NCBI RefSeq assembly: GCF_003334335.1
Contig: NZ_QOWQ01000047.1
Direction: 5' to 3' (one strand)
Length of the DNA: 31,056 nt
DNA from: Escherichia coli
GTDB lineage: Bacteria; Pseudomonadota; Gammaproteobacteria; Enterobacterales; Enterobacteriaceae
This document shows, piece after piece, positions 1,290 through 10,637 of this stretch. How positions within the stretch are numbered: position 1 is the stretch's first letter; each line of letters starts with the position of its first letter. The position numbers and the translations under genes were made by a program. A model generated the notes under the pieces. That model was given only the letters and a program-made list of their open reading frames with translations. It did not search any database and had not been told where the DNA came from.

Positions 1290-2021
1290 TCACCTGCCAT
1301 CCAGTAGACGCCCCGGCCCACGACTGCAACCATAATTACGTTGCCCGGAACCGTTATGCAACTTCGTTTCATTTTTCACGAGATAACGGGCTCTCTCCAG
1401 GGCTTTCTGCACCGCTTCCTTGTCACCACGCGTGACCCAGAGCACAGCGGATCCACCAGACTTTTTGTCAGAAGCCTTCCGGGTATCAGAACACCCACTT
1501 GGTAAAGGCGTGTCATCGGAAGAAGGGGGAGCAGCAGGTGATGTCGGTTTACGGGAAGGAGTCCACCTGGAAAAATGGACCAGCCCATCACCCAGCCAGG
1601 GCTCAATACGCAGGGCGCTGCACCATGCCTCCTGGATCAGCGTCGCCAGCGAAGAAGAAACGGTGAAATCCCCGAGCGAGCACCAGGTATCTTTGTTGAG
1701 CAGTAATATCACGTGATAATGTTTCCTGCCATACATCTTGCCGAACTCCCGGCACCAGAAATAACCCAGGCTGGTTGCATGCACACGCTGATTGGCACAT
1801 CTTTTTTTCCGCTGGTAAGCCTGAATTTTGGCTTTCAGGGATTCGAAAAAACGAGAAATCACCGCTGAATCCGGATCGGGCTCCATGATGGTGACAGGCA
1901 TATACTCAGGGAAACGTAAATCCACCCGGATTAACGAGACGGCACGGTGTTGCACCAGGGCACTGTTGAGAATACTTTCAAAACGGGATAACCAGTAATC
2001 ATTGTGTATTGGTTGATTCAT
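1290..2021 (-). CDS. YagK/YfjJ-family protein (inovirus Gp2-like domain), typical of CP4-type islands
   Basis: A 243-aa ORF. Its N-terminal two-thirds (…LIRVDLRFPE…, …RKHYHVILLLNKD…) resemble my recollection of K-12 YfjJ/YagK. It also has an internal Pro/Ser-rich low-complexity stretch. Confidence 0.6.
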   Translation of the reverse strand: MNQPIHNDYWLSRFESILNSALVQHRAVSLIRVDLRFPEYMPVTIMEPDPDSAVISRFFESLKAKIQAYQRKKRCANQRVHATSLGYFWCREFGKMYGRKHYHVILLLNKDTWCSLGDFTVSSSLATLIQEAWCSALRIEPWLGDGLVHFSRWTPSRKPTSPAAPPSSDDTPLPSGCSDTRKASDKKSGGSAVLWVTRGDKEAVQKALERARYLVKNETKLHNGSGQRNYGCSRGPGRLLDGR

Positions 2022-2690
2022 GATGAGAGATCTCCGTTGATTTGGATTGACTTCACATCATTAATCGCCGCGGTAAAACTTTACGGCATCCCACCAATGA
2101 GCAACGCCAATAGCTCCTGATTAAAACGGAATGAATCGTCCCGTAACGAAAAGATAATCCTGCACACGACAGCAAAACGTAAAACAACAGCATGAATGAG
2201 CTAAATGTCTAAAGAAAAACTGCCTTTTCACATTATTTTTCAGCGAGTAATCATACCAGCATCCCTAACATACGAAATCGCATCGTGATCGATCGCTGAT
2301 TCGCCGAACAACTGATCGAATACACCGGAATCTGCACTAACATCCTGATGGGTAACGGAAGACTAAAAAACCAGTGTTCTATTGATTGCACGGAATGCCT
2401 GTGCGCTGGCCTGACCAGTAAGCACAATTCTACGAGTAGTAAGATATCTACTCCAAAACCATGCGCAGTAGCCACCATATGTTGCCAGGGTGAAAAATAA
2501 GCTCAGAGCTATAGGGGAGTAATTCCCGTTAATGTCATCGCCGTACCTCAATCAGCTCACAAACTGGCTGAAACGTTAAGCTGAGGCCTTTATTCTTCAG
2601 ATGTATTTTCCGGTTTACCTGTAAATTATCTTCTGATATTTATCACATTAGTAATTGTGCTGATTATCTACATACTTCAAGGTCTGAAAT

Positions 2691-3221
2691 ATGAAGCTAA
2701 CAGAAGAAAGTCTGAATCTAGTCATTGACATCCTGAATGATTTGATCTGTGAAGGAAAAATGCTGAACGATGTGGAGCGCAGATCTCTGCTCAATGCAGT
2801 TATGGCAATTACAGCGGTAAAAGAACGTTCTGTCGTATCTGTATCATCCCGAAAAGAGCAAAGTAAGAAGGAGAAGAAGGAAAGAGAGATCGATCCTCGT
2901 TTCCCAAATGCTGGTGTGGCATGGAATGAGGCAGACGAGAGTTTATTGCGAGATGTTCTGGAGGATGTACCGGACGATGAAATTGGTAAACACCTTTTCT
3001 GGCTGGCAGAGAAACTAGGGCGAACCCCGTACAGTGTAGCCTGTAAAGTCAGACAAATTAAGAAATTACCTGCAGAATGGAAGGATCAATTTCGTAAAAT
3101 CTCTGACAGGATCCGTAGTTCTGGAATGTCAGTCAGTGAATATCTACAACGCCAGGGACTGTTAAGCCCAGAGTCAGGGGAAGAAAACAATCCTGTCAGT
3201 CATAACAACAATGTAGCTTAA
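2691..3221 (+). CDS. Hypothetical protein with a possible Myb/SANT-like helix-turn-helix segment
   Basis: A 176-aa ORF. Residues ~75-125 read AWNEADESLLRDVLEDVPDDEIGKHLFWLAEKLGRTPYSVACKVRQIKK. This follows the W-x2-E-[DE]-x2-L … W-x-[IL]A-x2-LGRT … spacing of Myb/SANT repeats. A Lys/Glu-rich linker (KEQSKKEKKERE) precedes it. Confidence 0.5.
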   Translation: MKLTEESLNLVIDILNDLICEGKMLNDVERRSLLNAVMAITAVKERSVVSVSSRKEQSKKEKKEREIDPRFPNAGVAWNEADESLLRDVLEDVPDDEIGKHLFWLAEKLGRTPYSVACKVRQIKKLPAEWKDQFRKISDRIRSSGMSVSEYLQRQGLLSPESGEENNPVSHNNNVA

Positions 3222-3234
3222 TCCTGAAGAAGAT

Positions 3235-3261
3235 GAACAGTTTATACTCTTTAAACTGTTC
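3235..3261 (+). terminator. Hairpin downstream of the 2691-3221 ORF: GAACAGTTTA, 7-nt loop, TAAACTGTTC
   Basis: Perfect 10-bp arms at 3235-3244 and 3252-3261, starting 14 nt after the stop codon. Only a weak T-run follows (CCTTAATTTTAG). Confidence 0.4.
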
Positions 3262-3748
3262 CCTTAATTTTAGAAAAACAGTTTGTGTAAGTGCATGCTC
3301 CAACATTCTGAAGGCGTTATTTCTTACAATACATCATAATCATTGGCAGATCCTCATCTGAATCAAAACACCACAACCAATCATCACACTTTTTCTGAAA
3401 AGAGCCTTATGATGAAGATAATCACCTTACGCTGAGAAAAAACACCAGGGCCAGTTAATCACCTTATCAATCTCGCCGTTACAAAATCATCCATAAGCCA
3501 TTTAACAGTGTTATCGCAAACTCACAGTAAATCGCATCAGGTTACCTCAATCGGATTTGAGTTAATTCACTGGGCTTTACGTAAAGATACTTTTCTCAAG
3601 CTAACGTCGAAACTCGAAATCTAAGGAAAGGTTAAACGTAACATCAGTAAAATCGAATAGCAGATTGATTGCTTAAACAGAAAGGTTTTACAGCAGCATT
3701 AAACTGATTTAGTTAACGTAAAGATTTACTAAACTGGATGTGTATAGC

Positions 3749-3880
3749 AATGCTTAACGAAAACACTTGTAGAAGTGTTTATGAAAATACGTGTATGTCT
3801 GGTAAAACACTTAGTAGAAAATACGTGTATAACACTTACTGAAATGCTTAGTAAAAATACTTAGTAAAATACGTGTATAT
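3749..3880. repeat. Iteron-like cluster of short direct and inverted repeats in an ORF-free AT-rich tract
   Basis: AAAATACGTGTAT occurs three times (3784-3796, 3818-3830, 3866-3878). The CTTAGTA core occurs three times (3810-3816, 3847-3853, 3860-3866), with degenerate copies (CTTAACG, CTTGTAG, CTTACTG) often 13 bp apart. A perfect palindrome AAACACTT-GTAG-AAGTGTTT sits at 3761-3780. Confidence 0.75.
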
Positions 3881-4384
3881 AGTATCATACCGACATTCTC
3901 AACATCTTCAGACTTCCATACATACTGGGTGTTAATTTTTCACTTTTACAGCCAGCATGGAGTTTTCTGTCCTAAAAACAGAGCAGATTTACTCTGGAGT
4001 TATTTTCCTGTTCACGTATTCAGTACAGCAGAAATCCCGTGATAACGAGACAGTAAACCATCGTAATCAGCGTCTGTAACTCCATCGCTTTACCCCAGAA
4101 AAGTTAAGCCATATAATGTGAGGGATATAAGTCGTCGTATCCGGTAAGTACAGATAACCACAACATAAGCTCATTCAGTAAATTTTATCTCTGAACAAAC
4201 GACTATGGCATGCTCATTTATACTATTCATAAGAAAGTGTGATTATCTGTAAGCATTAACCATCAAATCATATAACCATACTAAACTGGCGGATCATCAG
4301 CACCATTAGCAGGTAACTTATTGAAATTTTATTATGTGTTTTTTGTTGATAATTAATATGCAATATGAATTTGATATTTTAGAA

Positions 4385-5608
4385 TCATGAACACCATTTA
4401 AAATTACCATCATTAATATCATATAAAAATATATTTTTACTAAAACATGAATTGTATATATTTATTAGCTCAGGAAAATTATCAGGGTTCACCTTCAAAT
4501 TAACCTGAATGTTATGCTTAATTTCACCCAGTAGTTCTTCATGTGTGGATTTTATTATCCCATTATTATAATCGATAAATGCACACATGTTTTTTATGAA
4601 TTCAAAACCTTTTCCTGTATACAGTTTAATGAATGCCACCAGAGCAAACATTTCAAGATGTAGCCATAATGCTACGTTAGTTTTTTGCAAAGTATAAAAA
4701 ATTGAATTCGCCACTTTTTTACTTATTGCTCTTTTATACTGTGATCGAGCAAGATTCAGTAGCGGAAGCTCTCGTTCAATAAATGAATGTGAAAAGACTG
4801 GATAAATTGATGTCGGAAACCTTTCAGGCCTTATGATATTTTCTATTTCCACCATAAATCTATCCATAGAAAGAAAGTCACTTTCTTTTTTTATTCTGGT
4901 ATAGAGACCGCCTTTATTCCTTTCTGAGGTTTGTTTTCGTGCTATCCCCCCTAACAATTTCTCTAATTGTTTATTTATCTTCGTATAATTAAATACAACC
5001 ATTCTTCTTATCATCCTCGGAAGGATAATAATATCAGTGCTTGAATCACTTGAACGGCAATTATTATTTATCCATGCAACTTCAAGTTGCAGTATCGGAA
5101 CATTAACTTTTCTGGGGTGAATATCACTCTGATATCGTTTTTTGTATGCGTTTTCATTAAGATATTCTCTGCTGTAGAGAAACTTATAGCAATATAATCT
5201 GATAATATCTTTTATGTAAAATTTAAATAGTTCACCTGTAACAGATATATGTTTTCTGCTCAGTAACTCCTGTGTATTAAGCCATTCCCGTGACCGAAGC
5301 ACACCCTTGTGAAAACTTTTTCTTACTTGCTTTGAGGCACGGCATTGATGTAATATTTTTGCGTCCTCAATAATTCTCTTTCCCGTTTTATTTTTTGCAG
5401 CATCTCTTACTCCATAAAATATCTCCCGGTCCAGACTTTTGTCATATTTACTGATTATACGACAAATATTCCTGACCCGACGATTCTCTTTATTTCGCTT
5501 CCATAGCTTATAATGATCATCGCATAACCTTAAGGCATTTGCCTCATCAAATTCTGAAACAGGATTACTGCATTTTTTATTCCGACAAATACCTTTGTTT
5601 TTAGCCAT
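4385..5608 (-). CDS. Orphan hypothetical protein (407 aa) from a very AT-rich gene, with an N-terminal Cys/His cluster
   Basis: An uninterrupted 407-codon ORF with a purine-rich GGGAAGAAGAG stretch just upstream of the ATG. The N-terminus has C8-x4-C13 … C29-x2-H32. The rest is Lys/Ile/Asn/Phe-rich. I see no Walker A, DDE, RT or other motif I can recognise. Confidence 0.7.
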   Translation of the reverse strand: MAKNKGICRNKKCSNPVSEFDEANALRLCDDHYKLWKRNKENRRVRNICRIISKYDKSLDREIFYGVRDAAKNKTGKRIIEDAKILHQCRASKQVRKSFHKGVLRSREWLNTQELLSRKHISVTGELFKFYIKDIIRLYCYKFLYSREYLNENAYKKRYQSDIHPRKVNVPILQLEVAWINNNCRSSDSSTDIIILPRMIRRMVVFNYTKINKQLEKLLGGIARKQTSERNKGGLYTRIKKESDFLSMDRFMVEIENIIRPERFPTSIYPVFSHSFIERELPLLNLARSQYKRAISKKVANSIFYTLQKTNVALWLHLEMFALVAFIKLYTGKGFEFIKNMCAFIDYNNGIIKSTHEELLGEIKHNIQVNLKVNPDNFPELINIYNSCFSKNIFLYDINDGNFKWCS

Positions 5609-5708
5609 ACTCTTCTTCCCGTCAATGGAAAAATTTTCACACCCATATTACCTGAATGATAAACCGGATTAGTGTGATCCGGTTCAGTGAAATCAACAGG
5701 ATACCGGT

Positions 5709-7214
5709 ATGCCATTCAGCAATTCTTCCCTCTCCGCGCAAGTGAAATCATATCTGACGTTTCTTCCTGAAGAAATACGCCAGAAAATCCTTGAACATCT
5801 CCACGGTGTTATTCATTACGAGCCCGTGATTGGCATTATGGGTAAATCCGGCACCGGCAAGAGCAGCCTGTGTAATGCCATTTTTCAGTCCCGTATCTGC
5901 GCCACGCATCCCCTGAACGGCTGCACCCGCCAGGCTCATCGTCTTACCCTGCAGCTCGGTGAACGCAGAATGACGCTGGTCGATCTGCCCGGCATTGGTG
6001 AAACACCGCAGCATGATCAGGAATACCGAGCGCTTTATCGTCAGTTACTGCCGGAACTGGATCTGATTATCTGGATCCTGCGGAGTGATGAACGTGCGTA
6101 TGCTGCCGATATTGCCATGCATCAGTTTTTACTGAATGAGGGCGCAGATCCCTCGCGCTTTCTGTTTGTTCTCAGCCATGCCGATCGCATGTTTCCTGCT
6201 GAAGAATGGAATGCCACAGAAAAATGCCCGTCCCGTCACCAGGAACTCTCACTGGCGACAGTAACAGCCCGGGTGGCCACCCTGTTCCCTTCATCATTTC
6301 CGGTACTCCCCGTAGCCGCGCCTGCAGGCTGGAACCTTCCAGCGCTGGTGTCACTGATGATCCACGCGCTGCCACCACAGGCAACCAGCGCAGTTTATTC
6401 ACATATCCGGGGGGAAAACCACTCTGAACAGGCCCGGAAACACGCACAACTGACTTTTGGTGAAACCATCGGGAAAAGTTTTGACGACGCCGTTGCCCGT
6501 TTCAGTTTTCCGCCCTGGATGTTACAGCTTCTGCGCAAAACCCGGGACCGCATTATCCACCTGCTGTTCACTGTGGCATCCTTCTCCACCTCCGCCGGTA
6601 ACTGGGCTGTCAAAAACGGCTGGTGCCAGACCATGACGGAAGATGGTCAGGCGCTGGTAATGCTGAAAAATGGCACGATTGGTATTACCGGCCTGATGCA
6701 GGGATGCCCGAATGGCGTACAGACGCTCCTGGGCAGCCGTATCAGTATTAACGGTAACCTGATCCCCACATCACAAATGTGTAATCAGCAGACGGGATTC
6801 AGGGCTGTTGAGGTGGAAGTCGGACAGGCGCCGGAAATGGTCAAAAAAGCCGTTCACTCCATAGCAGAGCGTGATGTGTCCGTTTTACAGGCATTTGGTG
6901 TACGAATGGAATTCACCCGCGGTGATATGCTGAAGGTCTGTCCGAAATTTGTCACATCACTTGCCGGTTTTTCCCCGAAACAGACACCCGCCATTAATAA
7001 AGATTCCGTCCTGCAGGCTGCCCGGCAGGCATACGCCCGGGAATATGACGAGGAAACAACAGAAACCGCTGATTTTGGCTCTTACGAAGTAAAAGGCAAT
7101 AAGGTTGAGTTTGAAGTGTTCAATCCTGAAGACCGTGCGTACGACAAAGTGACCGTCACGGTTGGTGCTGACGGTAATGCCACCGGTGCCAGCGTTGAAT
7201 TTATCGGAAAATAG
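5709..7214 (+). CDS. YeeP/YkfA/YfjP-family GTPase (residues ~1-288) continuing in frame into a ~210-aa segment of unknown family
   Basis: It has a G1 P-loop GKSGTGKSS, a G3 DLPG and SHAD in place of the G4 motif. K-12 paralogues are recalled as about 287 aa, but here the frame stays open to 501 aa. An internal ATG at 6633 (M309) starts the extra segment. Confidence 0.8.
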
Positions 7215-7551: not shown

Positions 7552-8370
7552 ATGCGATTAGCAAGTCGTTTTGGTTATGCGAACCAGATACGCCGTGACC
7601 GCCCCTTAACTCGCGAAGAACTGATGCAGGTCGTCCCCAGCGTATTCGGGGAAGATAAGCACACATCCAGAAGCGAGAACTATACCTGGATCCCCACCAT
7701 CACAGTGCTGGAAAGCCTGCAGCGGGAAGGTTTTCAGCCATTCTTTGCCTGCCAGACCCGCGTACGTGACCCGGGCCGCCGGGGGTATACCAAACACATG
7801 CTGCGTCTGCGCCGTGACGGGGAGATAAACGGACAACATGTCCCTGAAATCATCCTGCTGAACTCCCATGACGGTACCTCCAGCTACCAGATGCTGCCGG
7901 GTTACTTCAGGTTCGTCTGCCAGAACGGCTGCGTCTGTGGTCAGTCTCTGGGGGAAGTGCGTGTTCCGCACCGGGGAAATGTGGTGGACAGAGTCATTGA
8001 AGGGGCTTACGAGGTGGTGGGCGTGTTTGACCGGATTGAGGAAAAGCGTGATGCCATGCAGTCGCTGATTCTGCCGCCACCGGCACGCCAGGCGCTGGCA
8101 CAGGCGGCACTGACTTACCGTTATGGTGACGAACATCAGCCCGTCACCACCGCCGACATTCTGACGCCACGACGCCGGGAGGATTACGGTAAGGACCTGT
8201 GGAGTGCTTATCAGACCATCCAGGAAAATATGCTGAAAGGCGGGATTTCCGGTCGCAGCGCTAAAGGAAAACGTATCCACACCCGTGCCATTCACAGCAT
8301 CGACACGGACATTAAGCTCAATCGCGCATTGTGGGTGATGGCAGAAACGCTGCTGGAGAGCATGCGCTGA
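7552..8370 (+). CDS. DUF932-family protein (YfjQ/YafZ-like)
   Basis: 272 aa with an AGGAG RBS 8 nt upstream. The sequence (…HMLRLRR…LLNSHDGTSSYQ…FRFVCQNGCVCG…) matches my recollection of YfjQ/YafZ. Confidence 0.85.
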   Translation: MRLASRFGYANQIRRDRPLTREELMQVVPSVFGEDKHTSRSENYTWIPTITVLESLQREGFQPFFACQTRVRDPGRRGYTKHMLRLRRDGEINGQHVPEIILLNSHDGTSSYQMLPGYFRFVCQNGCVCGQSLGEVRVPHRGNVVDRVIEGAYEVVGVFDRIEEKRDAMQSLILPPPARQALAQAALTYRYGDEHQPVTTADILTPRRREDYGKDLWSAYQTIQENMLKGGISGRSAKGKRIHTRAIHSIDTDIKLNRALWVMAETLLESMR

Positions 8371-8461: not shown

Positions 8462-8947
8462 ATGACAACCTTTTCGCATAGCTCCACCACACCTTCTGTT
8501 TCCGTAACCACTGCATCAGGGAATAACCAGTCTCAACTGGTTGCCACCATAGTCCCTGATGAACAGCGCATCAGCTTCTGGCCGCAGCACTTTGGCCTCA
8601 TTCCACAGTGGGTGACCCTGGAGCCCCGTGTCTTCGGCTGGATGGACCGTCTGTGTGAAGACTACTGCGGTGGTATCTGGAATCTGTACACCCTGAATAA
8701 CGGCGGCGCATTTATGGCGCCCGAACCGGATGAAGATGATGACGAAACATGGGTACTGTTCAATGCCATGAACAGTAACCGCGCTGAAATGAGCCCGGAA
8801 GCCGCCGGCATTGCAGCCTGTCTGATGACGTACAGCCATCATGCCTGTCGTATGGAGTGTTATGCCATGACGGTCCATTATTACCGGCTGCGGGATTATG
8901 CCCTGCAGCATCCGGAATGCAGCGCCATTATGCGCATCATTGACTGA
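8462..8947 (+). CDS. Antirestriction protein, KlcA/ArdB-like (YfjX/YafX-like)
   Basis: 161 aa. It has the characteristic …FWPQHFG…WMDRLCEDYCGGIWNLYTLNNGGAFMAP… block and sits in the conserved position upstream of the radC-like gene. Confidence 0.85.
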   Translation: MTTFSHSSTTPSVSVTTASGNNQSQLVATIVPDEQRISFWPQHFGLIPQWVTLEPRVFGWMDRLCEDYCGGIWNLYTLNNGGAFMAPEPDEDDDETWVLFNAMNSNRAEMSPEAAGIAACLMTYSHHACRMECYAMTVHYYRLRDYALQHPECSAIMRIID

Positions 8948-8961
8948 AAGGGGCCGGAACA

Positions 8962-9438
8962 ATGCAACAGATTTCCTTTCTGCCCGGAGAAATGACGCCC
9001 GGTGAGCGCAGCCTCATTCAGCGGGCCCTGAAAACCCTGGACCGCCATCTTTATGAACCCGGCGTGGCCTTCACCTCCACGCATGCGGCACGGGAGTGGC
9101 TGATTCTGAACATGGCGGGACTGGAGCGGGAAGAGTTCCGGGTGCTGTATCTGAACAACCAGAATCAGCTGATTGCCGGTGAAACCCTTTTCACCGGCAC
9201 CATCAACCGCACGGAAGTCCATCCCCGGGAAGTGATTAAACGCGCCCTGTACCACAATGCCGCTGCCGTGGTACTGGCGCACAATCACCCGTCCGGTGAA
9301 GTCACACCCAGTAAGGCAGACCGGCTTATCACCGAACGTCTGGTACAGGCACTGGGCCTGGTGGATATCCGGGTGCCGGACCATCTGATAGTCGGTGGCA
9401 GCCAGGTTTTCTCCTTTGCCGAACATGGTCTGCTTTAA
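8962..9438 (+). CDS. RadC-like JAB/MPN domain protein (YeeS/YkfG/YfjY-like)
   Basis: 158 aa with the JAMM-type motif HNHPSGEVTPSKAD. Confidence 0.9.
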   Translation: MQQISFLPGEMTPGERSLIQRALKTLDRHLYEPGVAFTSTHAAREWLILNMAGLEREEFRVLYLNNQNQLIAGETLFTGTINRTEVHPREVIKRALYHNAAAVVLAHNHPSGEVTPSKADRLITERLVQALGLVDIRVPDHLIVGGSQVFSFAEHGLL

Positions 9439-9801: not shown

Positions 9802-10170
9802 GTGTCAGACACATTCTCCGGGACAACGCATCCCGATGACAATCACGACCGCCCCTGGTGGGGACTGCCCTGCACCGTGACGCCCTGTTTTGGTTCCCGT
9901 CTGGTACAGGAAGGCAACCGGTTGCATTACCTTGCCGACCGCGCCGGTATCAGAGGGCGGTTCAGCGACGCGGATTCGTACCACCTGGACCAGGCCTTTC
10001 CGCTGCTGATGAAACAACTGGAACTCATGCTCACCAGCGGTGAACTGAATCCCCGCCATCAGCATACCGTCACGCTGTATGCAAAAGGGCTGACCTGCGC
10101 AGCCGACACCCTCGGCAGTTGTGGCTACGTTTATATGGCTGTTTATCCGACGCCCGAAACGAAAAAGTAA
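9802..10170 (+). CDS. cbeA: Type IV antitoxin CbeA (YeeU/YfjZ/YafW family)
   Basis: 122 aa with a GTG start. It is near-identical to recalled YeeU (…DNHDRPWWGLPCTVTPCFG.RLVQEGNRLHYLADRAGIRG…). Confidence 0.9.
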   Translation: MSDTFSGTTHPDDNHDRPWWGLPCTVTPCFGSRLVQEGNRLHYLADRAGIRGRFSDADSYHLDQAFPLLMKQLELMLTSGELNPRHQHTVTLYAKGLTCAADTLGSCGYVYMAVYPTPETKK

Positions 10171-10259
10171 CTCTCCAGAATAACCTTCTGCTCCGGCCTG
10201 GTGCTTTCACCACGCCACTTTTCCATTTTTCATCTCTGCATATCAGGAAAATCTTCAGT

Positions 10260-10637
10260 ATGAAAACATTACCTGTATTACCCGGGCTGGCGGCCAGTTC
10301 ACGCCCGTCTCCGGTTGAAATCTGGCAGACACTGCTCACCCGACTGCTGGATCAGCACTACGGCCTTACGCTGAATGACACACCATTCGCTGATGAACGT
10401 GTGATTGAGCAGCATATTGAGGCAGGCATTTCACTGTGTGATGCGGTGAACTTTCTCGTTGAAAAATACGCGCTGGTACGTACCGACCAGCCGGGATTCA
10501 GCGCCTGTACCCGTTCTCAGTTAATAAACAGTATTGATATCCTCCGGGCACGCCGGGCAACCGGCCTGATGACACGCGACAACTACAGAACGGTAAATAA
10601 CATTACCCTGGGTAAACATCCGGGGGCGAAACAATGA
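10260..10637 (+). CDS. cbtA: Type IV toxin CbtA (YeeV/YkfI/YpjF family), a cytoskeleton-targeting toxin
   Basis: The track ORF 10119-10637 contains an internal ATG at 10260. From there MKTLPVLPG.AASSRPSPVEIWQ…DQHYGLTLNDTPFADERVIEQHIEAGISLCDAVNFLVEKY matches recalled CbtA (~124 aa). The 47 codons upstream overlap the cbeA 3' end and intergenic sequence. Confidence 0.9.
   Translation: MKTLPVLPGLAASSRPSPVEIWQTLLTRLLDQHYGLTLNDTPFADERVIEQHIEAGISLCDAVNFLVEKYALVRTDQPGFSACTRSQLINSIDILRARRATGLMTRDNYRTVNNITLGKHPGAKQ

Follow-up and report, generated by a model that had tools for sequence, protein, structure and literature searches.

A conserved direct-repeat array in the control/origin region of the Gp2/YfjJ module of E. 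coli islands, and its possible recognition by an HUH initiator

An array of about 11 contiguous 12-13-bp units, all in a single orientation (plus strand) and with the consensus wAAAAYRCKTRKW, was found at positions 3738-3878 of the window, by which we mean the whole stretch of 31,056 nucleotides analysed here. This array is real, well beyond chance expectation, conserved, and of direct-repeat nature. It is part of the HUH (Gp2/YfjJ) module, and more precisely of its control/origin region, in an island family that is very common in E. coli. Since it is non-random, conserved and built of direct repeats, it is best read as a multi-site protein-binding platform, of the iteron or operator kind. The explanation that we favour, with a probability of roughly 0.4, is that its units would be iterons bound by the Gp2/YfjJ initiator, in a candidate origin or operator/control region. 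In the literature searched, no description of the array has been found so far.

Sequence and conservation of the array

Clear unit starts are located near 3746, 3759, 3783, 3803, 3817, 3828, 3840, 3853 and 3865. They are separated by 11-14 nt or by multiples of this distance (20-26, 35-37), from which we conclude that the 135 bp consist of about 11 contiguous 12-13-bp direct units. Two sub-types compose the array, AAAATACGTGTAT and AAAAYACTTAGTA. As reported in a preliminary description of this DNA, the 13-nt AAAATACGTGTAT is present in three exact copies, which start at 3784, 3818 and 3866, and CTTAGTA is also found three times without mismatch, at 3810, 3847 and 3860. The 13-bp phasing proposed at the same time was recovered by Tandem Repeats Finder, in the form of a period-13 array at 3804-3869 with consensus AAAATACTTAGTA. 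Shuffle tests preserving dinucleotides were applied to the ORF-free stretch 3222-4384. For the exact 13-mer, 0.00 copies were expected (300 shuffles, 3 observed), and for CTTAGTA 0.13 (3 observed). The generic unit, AYRCKT following a run of A, is present in 9 same-strand copies within 135 nt, compared to a maximum of 4 in 1000 shuffles. A second cluster with at least 4 units per 140 nt was found neither in the 31-kb window nor in 48 kb of the related PCN033 island.

Apart from ORFs of 40-42 aa, the array region is ORF-free, in agreement with the preliminary description. Its upstream repeats were also retrieved in the window, namely the direct repeat ACGTAAAGAT (3579-3588 and 3716-3725) and the AGTAAAT/AGTAAAAT strings near 3527 and 3645. 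DNA-fold z-scores, computed by sliding over 2000-4400, showed nothing remarkable outside the repeats themselves.

The array region matches about 1850 of the 5426 complete E. coli genomes (about a third), at up to 6-7 places per genome. All but one of these places are chromosomal, and none is annotated. Motif enrichment over shuffled sequence and conservation in related islands were two of the observations on which the preliminary description had made its reading depend, and both are obtained. Array DNA was absent from the 50,697 phage records searched. It was found in 3 of 72,556 plasmids; the one inspected belongs to the IncF group and does not represent an episomal island. A set of 2.9 million viral contigs gave a single match. 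No extrachromosomal form of the island was found in the plasmid or phage collections. The K-12 elements CP4-57 and CP4-6 lack the module, and no such array is present at yfjJ or yagK. The conserved module corresponds approximately to window positions 3576-4010, the array itself being its smallest shared core.

Iterons, a centromere-like site and a multi-site operator had all been put forward at first for these repeats. A platform of the iteron or operator kind is retained, and the centromere is not. Phased short direct repeats do resemble the 11-bp iterons of R1 parC, a feature of general knowledge that would fit a plasmid-type partition centromere (parC/parS). However, no ParA, ParM, ParB or ParR Pfam domain was detected when window ORFs of 90 aa or more were searched, and none is found among the annotated neighbouring genes in related E. 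coli loci. A theta-replication iteron origin is no better suited: the window contains no winged-helix (Rep_3-type) Rep gene, no DnaA or IHF consensus is present within 3222-4384, and the units measure 12-13 bp instead of 17-22 bp. The chromosomal location of the element, and its practical absence from the plasmid collection, speak against both. We give very little credence to a plasmid-type function of this sort.

Unit number varies from 4 to 9 in the E. coli loci fetched first (L002-L017). Metagenomes were then scanned with a two-box pattern, chance matches to the pattern serving as an internal control. Metagenomic loci with the E. coli spacing carry 3-9 units, and most of them have a Gp2 match on the left; where this match is missing, there is mostly little sequence left of the array. 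The chance matches had 0-1 units and no Gp2. Among 47 metagenomic loci, 25 distinct alleles were counted, with an anchor-to-anchor distance of 92-226 bp. Alleles differ by whole units or groups of units gained or lost, as in L007, which has a 34-bp deletion between two AAAATACGTGTAT copies, and in L010, where the deletion is larger. The indels are not multiples of 3.

Such a very high length polymorphism is what would be expected of a functionless AT-rich minisatellite, evolving by slippage or unequal recombination and hitch-hiking between two selected elements. The array is also more variable than its right flank, and in two loci (L127 and L134) most of it has been replaced. Nevertheless, all alleles keep the orientation of the units and the core positions, and at least 3-4 units are present everywhere. 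The first units, and the last unit adjoining TATAGTA, are always retained. Moreover, an analogous array is found beside a very divergent Gp2 paralogue, and repeat clusters exist in other genera (see below). We consider a neutral minisatellite improbable.

A perfect 8-4-8 palindrome, AAACACTT-GTAG-AAGTGTTT, is present within the array at 3761-3780. It had been noticed from the start, and is indeed perfect in the window, but it is imperfect in most homologues. Of the loci fetched, only the window, L001, L002 and L004 have it without mismatch, to which a few metagenomic alleles can be added. It is broken in L006-L009, L011-L012 and L014-L017, deleted in L010, and changed only in the loop in L013. 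No compensatory changes were detected in the stems across the alleles compared. Being broken in most alleles without compensation, the palindrome was ruled out as a functional hairpin; allele comparison suggests that it is probably incidental.

Island context and flanking elements

The window is a piece of E. coli chromosome, with cadCBA, dtpC, lysU, ghoS, dcuSR, dcuB and fumB in its right two-thirds. The left 12 kb correspond to the distal end of a CP4-like island integrated at a tRNA gene, and contain in this order the Gp2 gene, non-coding DNA with an inserted 176-aa ORF, the array, a 407-aa gene, a GTPase gene, DUF932, an ArdB/KlcA-type antirestriction gene, RadC, CbeA/CbtA, DUF5983 and DUF4942. 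A common order of parts was found in 16 annotated E. coli loci (L001-L004 and L006-L017, L001 being identical to the window): Gp2 on the minus strand, or an IS66 replacement, then non-coding DNA, the array, a 130-bp right flank, variable cargo, and the GTPase on the plus strand.

The spacer between the Gp2 start codon and the array (2022-3737) is non-coding, and longer here than in most loci, where it measures about 0.8-1.0 kb. The distance from the Gp2 start to the array anchor is 819-1051 nt in loci lacking the 176-aa ORF, and increases to about 1810-1859 nt in those that have it. The non-coding region, about 1 kb long, has a strand-asymmetric composition. No conserved small ORF, such as one for an RHH repressor, is kept between loci in the interval separating Gp2 from the array.

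The two proteins encoded close to the array, of 176 and 407 aa, had been suggested as its possible binders. The 176-aa ORF (2691-3221, plus strand) is inserted in the spacer together with a bidirectional terminator-like hairpin (3235-3261). It is present only in the window, L001, L010 and L015-L017, and missing from the array-bearing loci L002-L004, L006-L009 and L011-L014. The 407-aa low-GC gene (4385-5608, minus strand) is one of several alternative cargoes at this place, and other genes replace it in the array-bearing loci L002, L004, L006-L008, L011 and L012. Neither protein gave a family match (Pfam, NCBIfam, PADLOC, and also PHROG for the 407-aa protein). Since both are absent from many array-bearing loci, neither is an obligatory partner of the array, and both were ruled out.

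To the right, the cargo slot is bounded by a YfjP/YeeP-like GTPase gene (5709-7214, plus strand), the first of a rightward operon that continues with DUF932 (7552-8370), the ArdB/KlcA-type antirestriction gene (8462-8947), RadC (8962-9438) and CbeA/CbtA (9802-10637). By its content (ArdB, RadC, DUF932), this operon resembles plasmid leading regions, in which such genes follow a conjugative oriT and enter the recipient first; the module itself is essentially absent from plasmids. Independently, a 2025 preprint reports that these tRNA-integrated defence islands code for an integrase, for an excisionase and for a rolling-circle endonuclease of the HUH type, and that the RadC/ArdB/CbtA module sits opposite the integrase end; it describes no cis site (PMC12458937).

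Two short elements accompany the array on its right. The first one (3876-3913) adjoins it and consists of a TATA-like box, TATATAGTATCATA, followed by the nearly invariant CCGACATTCTCAAYATCTTCAGAC. The TATA-like box and CCGACAT are invariant across E. coli alleles, and ATGTCGG with a TATA box also adjoins the repeats in Providencia heimbachae (L022). Reading by eye, we noted on the minus strand the hexamers TTGAGA (3902-3897) and TATACA (3879-3874), 17 nt apart, and on the plus strand the -10-like hexamers TATAGT/TATCAT, with a poor -35. The hexamers beside the array were not called by a promoter scan. If the minus-strand hexamers were used, the array would occupy positions +1 to +120 of a leftward transcript.

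The second element is the box TTTACTCTGGAGTTAT (ACTCTGGAGTTAT) at 3988-4003, about 100 bp past the TATA/CCGACAT core. With it the conserved module ends on the right: islands lose homology a few bases beyond it, and variable cargo starts. At a comparable place, ACTCTGGARTTAT is found in Providencia, in Brenneria and in a Logan contig. No reading frame through the ACTCTGGARTTAT box is conserved across genera. An ORF at 3957-4079 (MEFSVLKTEQIYSGVIF...) was considered as a small protein and rejected, as its frame has no start codon across genera and only the DNA box is kept. Conserved candidate nick sequences are present, CCGACATTCTCAA and ACTCTGGAGTTAT, neither of which is marked as a nick site. 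Allele comparison, DNA folding and consensus folds revealed no nick site, no conserved hairpin and no structured single-strand origin.

A role at the RNA level was also envisaged, the repeats lying in the 5′ leader of the leftward transcript, or the right flank (about 3890-4005) being a small RNA whose promoter would be served by the array. A plus-strand terminator-like hairpin (3979-3996) is followed by GAGTTATTTT, as would suit such an RNA, but this terminator stem is lost in other alleles and genera. A second stem, TCCAT/ATGGA, shows changes on both sides between alleles; overall, RNAalifold gave weak folds for the 138 nt of the right flank, at -9 and -12 kcal/mol, each strand having 2 covarying pairs. 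The non-coding nature of about 1 kb of DNA with strand-asymmetric composition is compatible with an RNA, yet no Rfam match was obtained over 2000-6000 at E values up to 1, except for one chance snoRNA elsewhere, and the 12-13 nt of the units fall short of the repeat length in known RNAs of this type, such as ToxI. An RNA function appears very unlikely.

The HUH gene and related modules

The preliminary description had stated that no rep gene was adjacent to the repeats. This is incorrect, as a gene of the Gp2/YfjJ family ('inovirus Gp2 family', YfjJ/YagK) is present at 1290-2021 on the minus strand, and encodes a 243-aa homologue of HUH-type rolling-circle initiators, of the WP_001075492 type. 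In HUH origins the initiator gene is next to the origin, and Gp2/YfjJ has this position relative to the array. Its conserved motifs are IRVDLRFP, KHYHVILLLNKD (the HUH motif, here HYH) and RARYLVKNETK (YxxK), and they hold in an alignment reaching homologues from Providencia, Brenneria and Morganellaceae, at 35-40% identity. A model of Gp2 matched the nickase/origin-binding domains of parvovirus NS1, SIRV1 ORF119, AAV5 Rep, pMV158 RepB, Helraiser and CRESS Reps. The RepB matches include the RepB OBD bound to its direct repeats. Judged from these model matches and from its motifs, Gp2 has an HUH fold and HUH motifs. Proteins of this fold-match list recognise tandem direct repeats beside a nick site.

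In 14 of the 16 annotated E. coli loci, the Gp2 gene is found 0.8-1.9 kb left of the array, on the opposite strand. The other two (L012 and L015) have IS66 elements in its place. Gp2 thus accompanies the array wherever the left flank is intact, and the array is retained where Gp2 is a pseudogene or has been lost (L011, L012, L015). A further Gp2 homologue occurs in OR844780.1, a record labelled 'phage'; this is an unverified contig of low coverage, which we left out.

The island of PCN033 offered an informative comparison. It is inserted at a tRNA-Leu gene and is composite, with a second module further left made of AlpA, a 190-aa protein and a 188-aa Gp2-type protein. This 188-aa paralogue, WP_001126818, is very distant from the Gp2 of the window (about 20% identity in partial BLASTP alignments, E 2.6); it contains HAHAVF and YLAK motifs, and has weak Pfam matches to the same families as the window Gp2. 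About 870 bp upstream of its gene, that is, at the same relative place, another array was found, array b (41340-41500 of locus L030), with units close to AAAGACARAGTGAATA followed by TATAATTATAGTAAT. This second array region has conserved counterparts in 1178 E. coli genomes, where it carries no annotation. Between a-type (L008) and b-type (PCN033) modules, AlpA is 95% identical and the 190-aa protein 89%. Because these two proteins are near-identical between the module types, the repeat sequence changes with the HUH protein and not with AlpA or the 190-aa protein. The latter two, so similar in spite of unrelated arrays, are disfavoured as array-specific binders. The contrast between arrays a and b is the strongest argument we have for Gp2 as the cognate binder, and suggests such a pairing without proving it. 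Gp2 and the array are also the physically closest parts.

Other genera provided a simpler arrangement of the same parts. In P. heimbachae L022, the Gp2-AlpA and GTPase-HTH-ArdB-DUF932 operons are transcribed away from each other, and only one intergenic region of 450 bp, free of cargo, separates them. Read in the orientation of the window, these 450 bp contain four AAAYACAT units at 11-bp spacing, TATATTACTATATCCGACAT, a spacer of 76 bp (82 bp box to box), and ATAACTCTGGAGTTAT, a perfect 7-2-7 palindrome (ATAACTC-TG-GAGTTAT). The matching series in E. coli is the array, TATATAGTATCATACCGACAT, about 100 bp, and TTTACTCTGGAGTTAT, after which homology ends. As divergent operons flank the same series of boxes in Providencia, we conclude that the cargo slot of E. 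coli lies inside a former divergent promoter/control region, of which the array is part. In Brenneria (L021), Gp2 followed by AlpA is likewise divergent from an operon ending in DUF932 and RadC.

A generic test for repeat clusters was applied to six Gp2-linked intergenic regions (16-mers tolerating 3 mismatches at most and occurring at least 3 times in 150 nt, 200 shuffles). Clusters exceeded all 200 shuffles in the window, Brenneria L021, L026 and array b of PCN033. For Providencia L022, 5 of the 200 shuffles reached the observed value, and in a Morganellaceae locus (L024) the cluster was not significant in this test.

These results have to be weighed against another reading, in which the units are the sites of a regulator different from Gp2, encoded by the island or by the host, and the array would act as a transcriptional operator, or as a set of upstream-activator sites, for the promoter core that it abuts. 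The promoter could be leftward (Gp2, 190-aa protein, AlpA), with the array at about +1 to +120, or rightward (cargo and GTPase operon), with the array at -35 and upstream. The ancestral location is that of an operator, in a divergent intergenic region that in Providencia measures no more than 450 bp from the GTPase start codon to that of Gp2, and the neighbouring ACTCTGGAGTTAT box, palindromic in that species, is operator-like as well. The -10-like hexamers abutting the array are kept in Providencia as well as next to both E. coli arrays, a and b, but they were recognised by eye and escaped the promoter scan. Within E. coli a-type islands the array allele tracks the right-flank type, a co-segregation that an operator would explain, and no covariation of the array allele with the Gp2 clade was seen inside E. 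coli. In Providencia the core of the units resembles AAAAYAC although Gp2 is only 37% identical, and a more conserved or host-encoded binder would explain this similarity equally well. Further observations count against the Gp2 reading: the array is 0.8-1.9 kb away from the gene, a foreign ORF with its terminator is tolerated in between, loci with a degraded or lost Gp2 keep the array, yfjJ and yagK of K-12 have no comparable one, and neither a nick site nor an extrachromosomal form was found.

On the other hand, there is no candidate regulator whose variation follows that of the array: AlpA and the 190-aa protein are nearly the same in modules with unrelated arrays. The YfjR/WYL-type regulator gene found just downstream of the GTPase in other islands is missing from that place here, and the array is intact anyway. 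The lack of a second cluster of units in the island means that there is no regulon, which is also unfavourable to an operator. Given that -10-like hexamers abut the array in both directions, a purely transcriptional operator is a serious rival, possible even if we lean against it, and one that is compatible with recognition by Gp2.

A model for the array and comparison with known systems

The reading that we prefer is that of a binding platform for the HUH initiator of the island. The array would be placed in an ancestral divergent control region, between a leftward 'mobility' operon (Gp2, 190-aa protein, AlpA) and a rightward one (GTPase-DUF932-ArdB-RadC-CbtA). Several Gp2 molecules would bind the same-oriented 12-13-bp units cooperatively. 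By occupying the array, Gp2 would also cover the adjoining TATA-like promoter core, which could lead to autoregulation. Bound Gp2 might in addition position its nuclease on nearby AT-rich DNA, so that a nick would start rolling-circle replication or mobilisation of the excised island. What we infer here is the binding of Gp2 to the array, the nicking and replication, and the position of the nick.

A broader scheme can be proposed. The HUH gene, the 1-kb spacer, the array, the TATA/CCGACAT core and the ACTCTGGAGTTAT box would together form the cis-acting origin, for replication or mobilisation, of widespread tRNA-integrating defence islands of E. coli and other Enterobacterales. Each HUH lineage would have its own set of iterons, and the box would show precisely where alternative cargo, defensive or metabolic, is captured or swapped. 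This extension is speculative, and we regard it as rather unlikely in its complete form.

A large proportion of E. coli genomes contain CP4-like islands with an integrase, AlpA, an HUH gene, cargo and the GTPase-ArdB-RadC-CbtA genes, and their cargo serves defence, virulence and metabolism. The array, together with the analogous array b, is the first concrete cis-acting candidate for how such islands replicate or move. The two arrays yield a candidate binding site for the initiator, and a small number of sequences as candidates for the nick or the operator. The sharp edge of the module at ACTCTGGAGTTAT, where the cargo changes, may help to explain cargo swapping, and the polymorphism in unit number provides a natural typing marker. 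Should the array be only an operator or a neutral minisatellite, these results would be a useful annotation of a common, unannotated element, and nothing more.

Rolling-circle origins have been described as composed of a bind site and a nick site (PMC5714925). The origin of pMV158, recognised by RepB, has a bind locus of three 11-bp direct repeats and a separate nick locus, and shares with the present array the use of short repeats in the same orientation. It differs in having 3 units, compared to 4-11 here. In the islands, the array is located 0.8-1.9 kb from the gene, no nick hairpin was found, and the element is chromosomal instead of a plasmid.

Parvovirus and AAV Rep-binding elements are made of 4-nt units, in a hairpinned telomere by the terminal resolution site, and their Reps have a helicase domain, which Gp2 lacks. 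Tandem 10-13-bp direct repeats that overlap a promoter and are cooperatively bound by a small protein are likewise found in the R1 parC/ParR centromere-operator and in the arrays of recombination directionality factors (Xis/Cox/Vis/AlpA). In contrast to these, the islands have no par genes, AlpA is 95% identical in spite of unrelated arrays, and the array is not at the attachment site.

The common region of geminiviruses and CRESS viruses presents the same order of parts: a leftward HUH rep gene, iterons, a TATA-like box, a short element about 100 bp further on, and rightward genes. Iteron sequence is lineage-specific there, as it is for array a compared to array b, and endonuclease domains of CRESS Reps are among the fold matches of Gp2. 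The likeness is one of general knowledge and not a homology result. The array region differs by the absence of a GC-rich stem-loop with a nonanucleotide, by its many more and longer units, and by the 1-kb spacer to the gene. Finally, the cargo junction proposed at the box in the broader scheme would recall the geometry of ISCR/IS91-like elements, in which rolling-circle capture concerns sequence upstream of the HUH gene.

A conserved box at the right edge of the module

Within the intergenic region the deepest conservation was that of a 13-mer, ACTCTGGARTTAT, found in E. coli, in Providencia, in Brenneria and in one further contig. The box lies at 3988-4003 in the window, at 3647-3662 in the Providencia heimbachae locus (L022), at about 3727-3739 in the Brenneria locus (L021) and at about 3575-3587 in the further contig (L026). 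Its Providencia copy reads as a perfect 7-2-7 palindrome. Among E. coli islands, homology stops exactly at this box, and the variable cargo starts there. Possible roles for the box are those of an operator, a nick site or a recombination junction.

On the other side of the array, in the spacer separating it from Gp2, a hairpin with a 10-bp stem (3235-3261), terminator-like in both directions, follows immediately after the 176-aa ORF. The presence of such a structure right behind the ORF is consistent with a self-contained insertion into the spacer. Some strains have further simple repeats in this non-coding spacer: (AAACCAC)n(AAAACTC)n at 2851-2915 of the E. coli island L009, and (GATGGT)n at 3555-3614 of locus L023.

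Gp2 modules and their neighbours

A 190-aa "hypothetical protein" is encoded between Gp2 and AlpA, on the minus strand, in the E. coli island L008 (683-1255) and in that of PCN033 (L030, 39125-39697). This protein is possibly a degenerate HUH paralogue without the first histidine; no Pfam match was obtained for it. Two stretches resembling Gp2 motifs, RRILLRLPWE and PEYHVVLCV, were recognised by eye only. In the PCN033 island, genes for an H-NS-family paralogue and for a ProQ/FinO-family protein lie near this AlpA-190-aa-Gp2 module (36329-37984).

This PCN033 module is the second Gp2-type module of its island. Its part at 39944-41500 contains a very divergent Gp2-type HUH gene (188 aa) with its own repeat array upstream (41371-41475, unit about AAAGACARAGTGAATA), on a strand that is markedly purine-rich. 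This region is kept in 1178 E. coli genomes, UTI89 included, and is annotated in none of them.

Gp2 and the array also occur on JBJEFM010000195.1, a contig of a MAG labelled Bacillus sp., within a 2-kb stretch that shares 90% identity with the E. coli island; the Bacillus assignment probably reflects binning contamination.

The GTPase gene and the cargo slot

The GTPase ORF of the window (5709-7214, plus strand) encodes 501 aa, versus 294 aa in all the other annotated E. coli loci, and no domain match was found for its C-terminal 220 residues. Directly downstream, the site of a YfjR/WYL-type regulator gene in many annotated loci, no such gene was found. Just upstream of the start codon stands a hairpin (5655-5685 in the window, 15655-15690 in L018, about 14010-13975 in L019), whose position is shared by different islands. 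Its arms are AACCGGAT...ATCCGGTT in the window and GGCAGAACC...GGTTCTGCC, followed by a T-run, in K-12; it may act as an attenuator or terminator within the leader.

The 407-aa gene (4385-5608, minus strand, GC 31-35%) is a candidate for an uncharacterised defence gene; Pfam, NCBIfam, PADLOC and PHROGs gave no match for it. Its slot is occupied by AbpAB and RnlAB in CP4-57 of K-12, and by different gene pairs in further strains.
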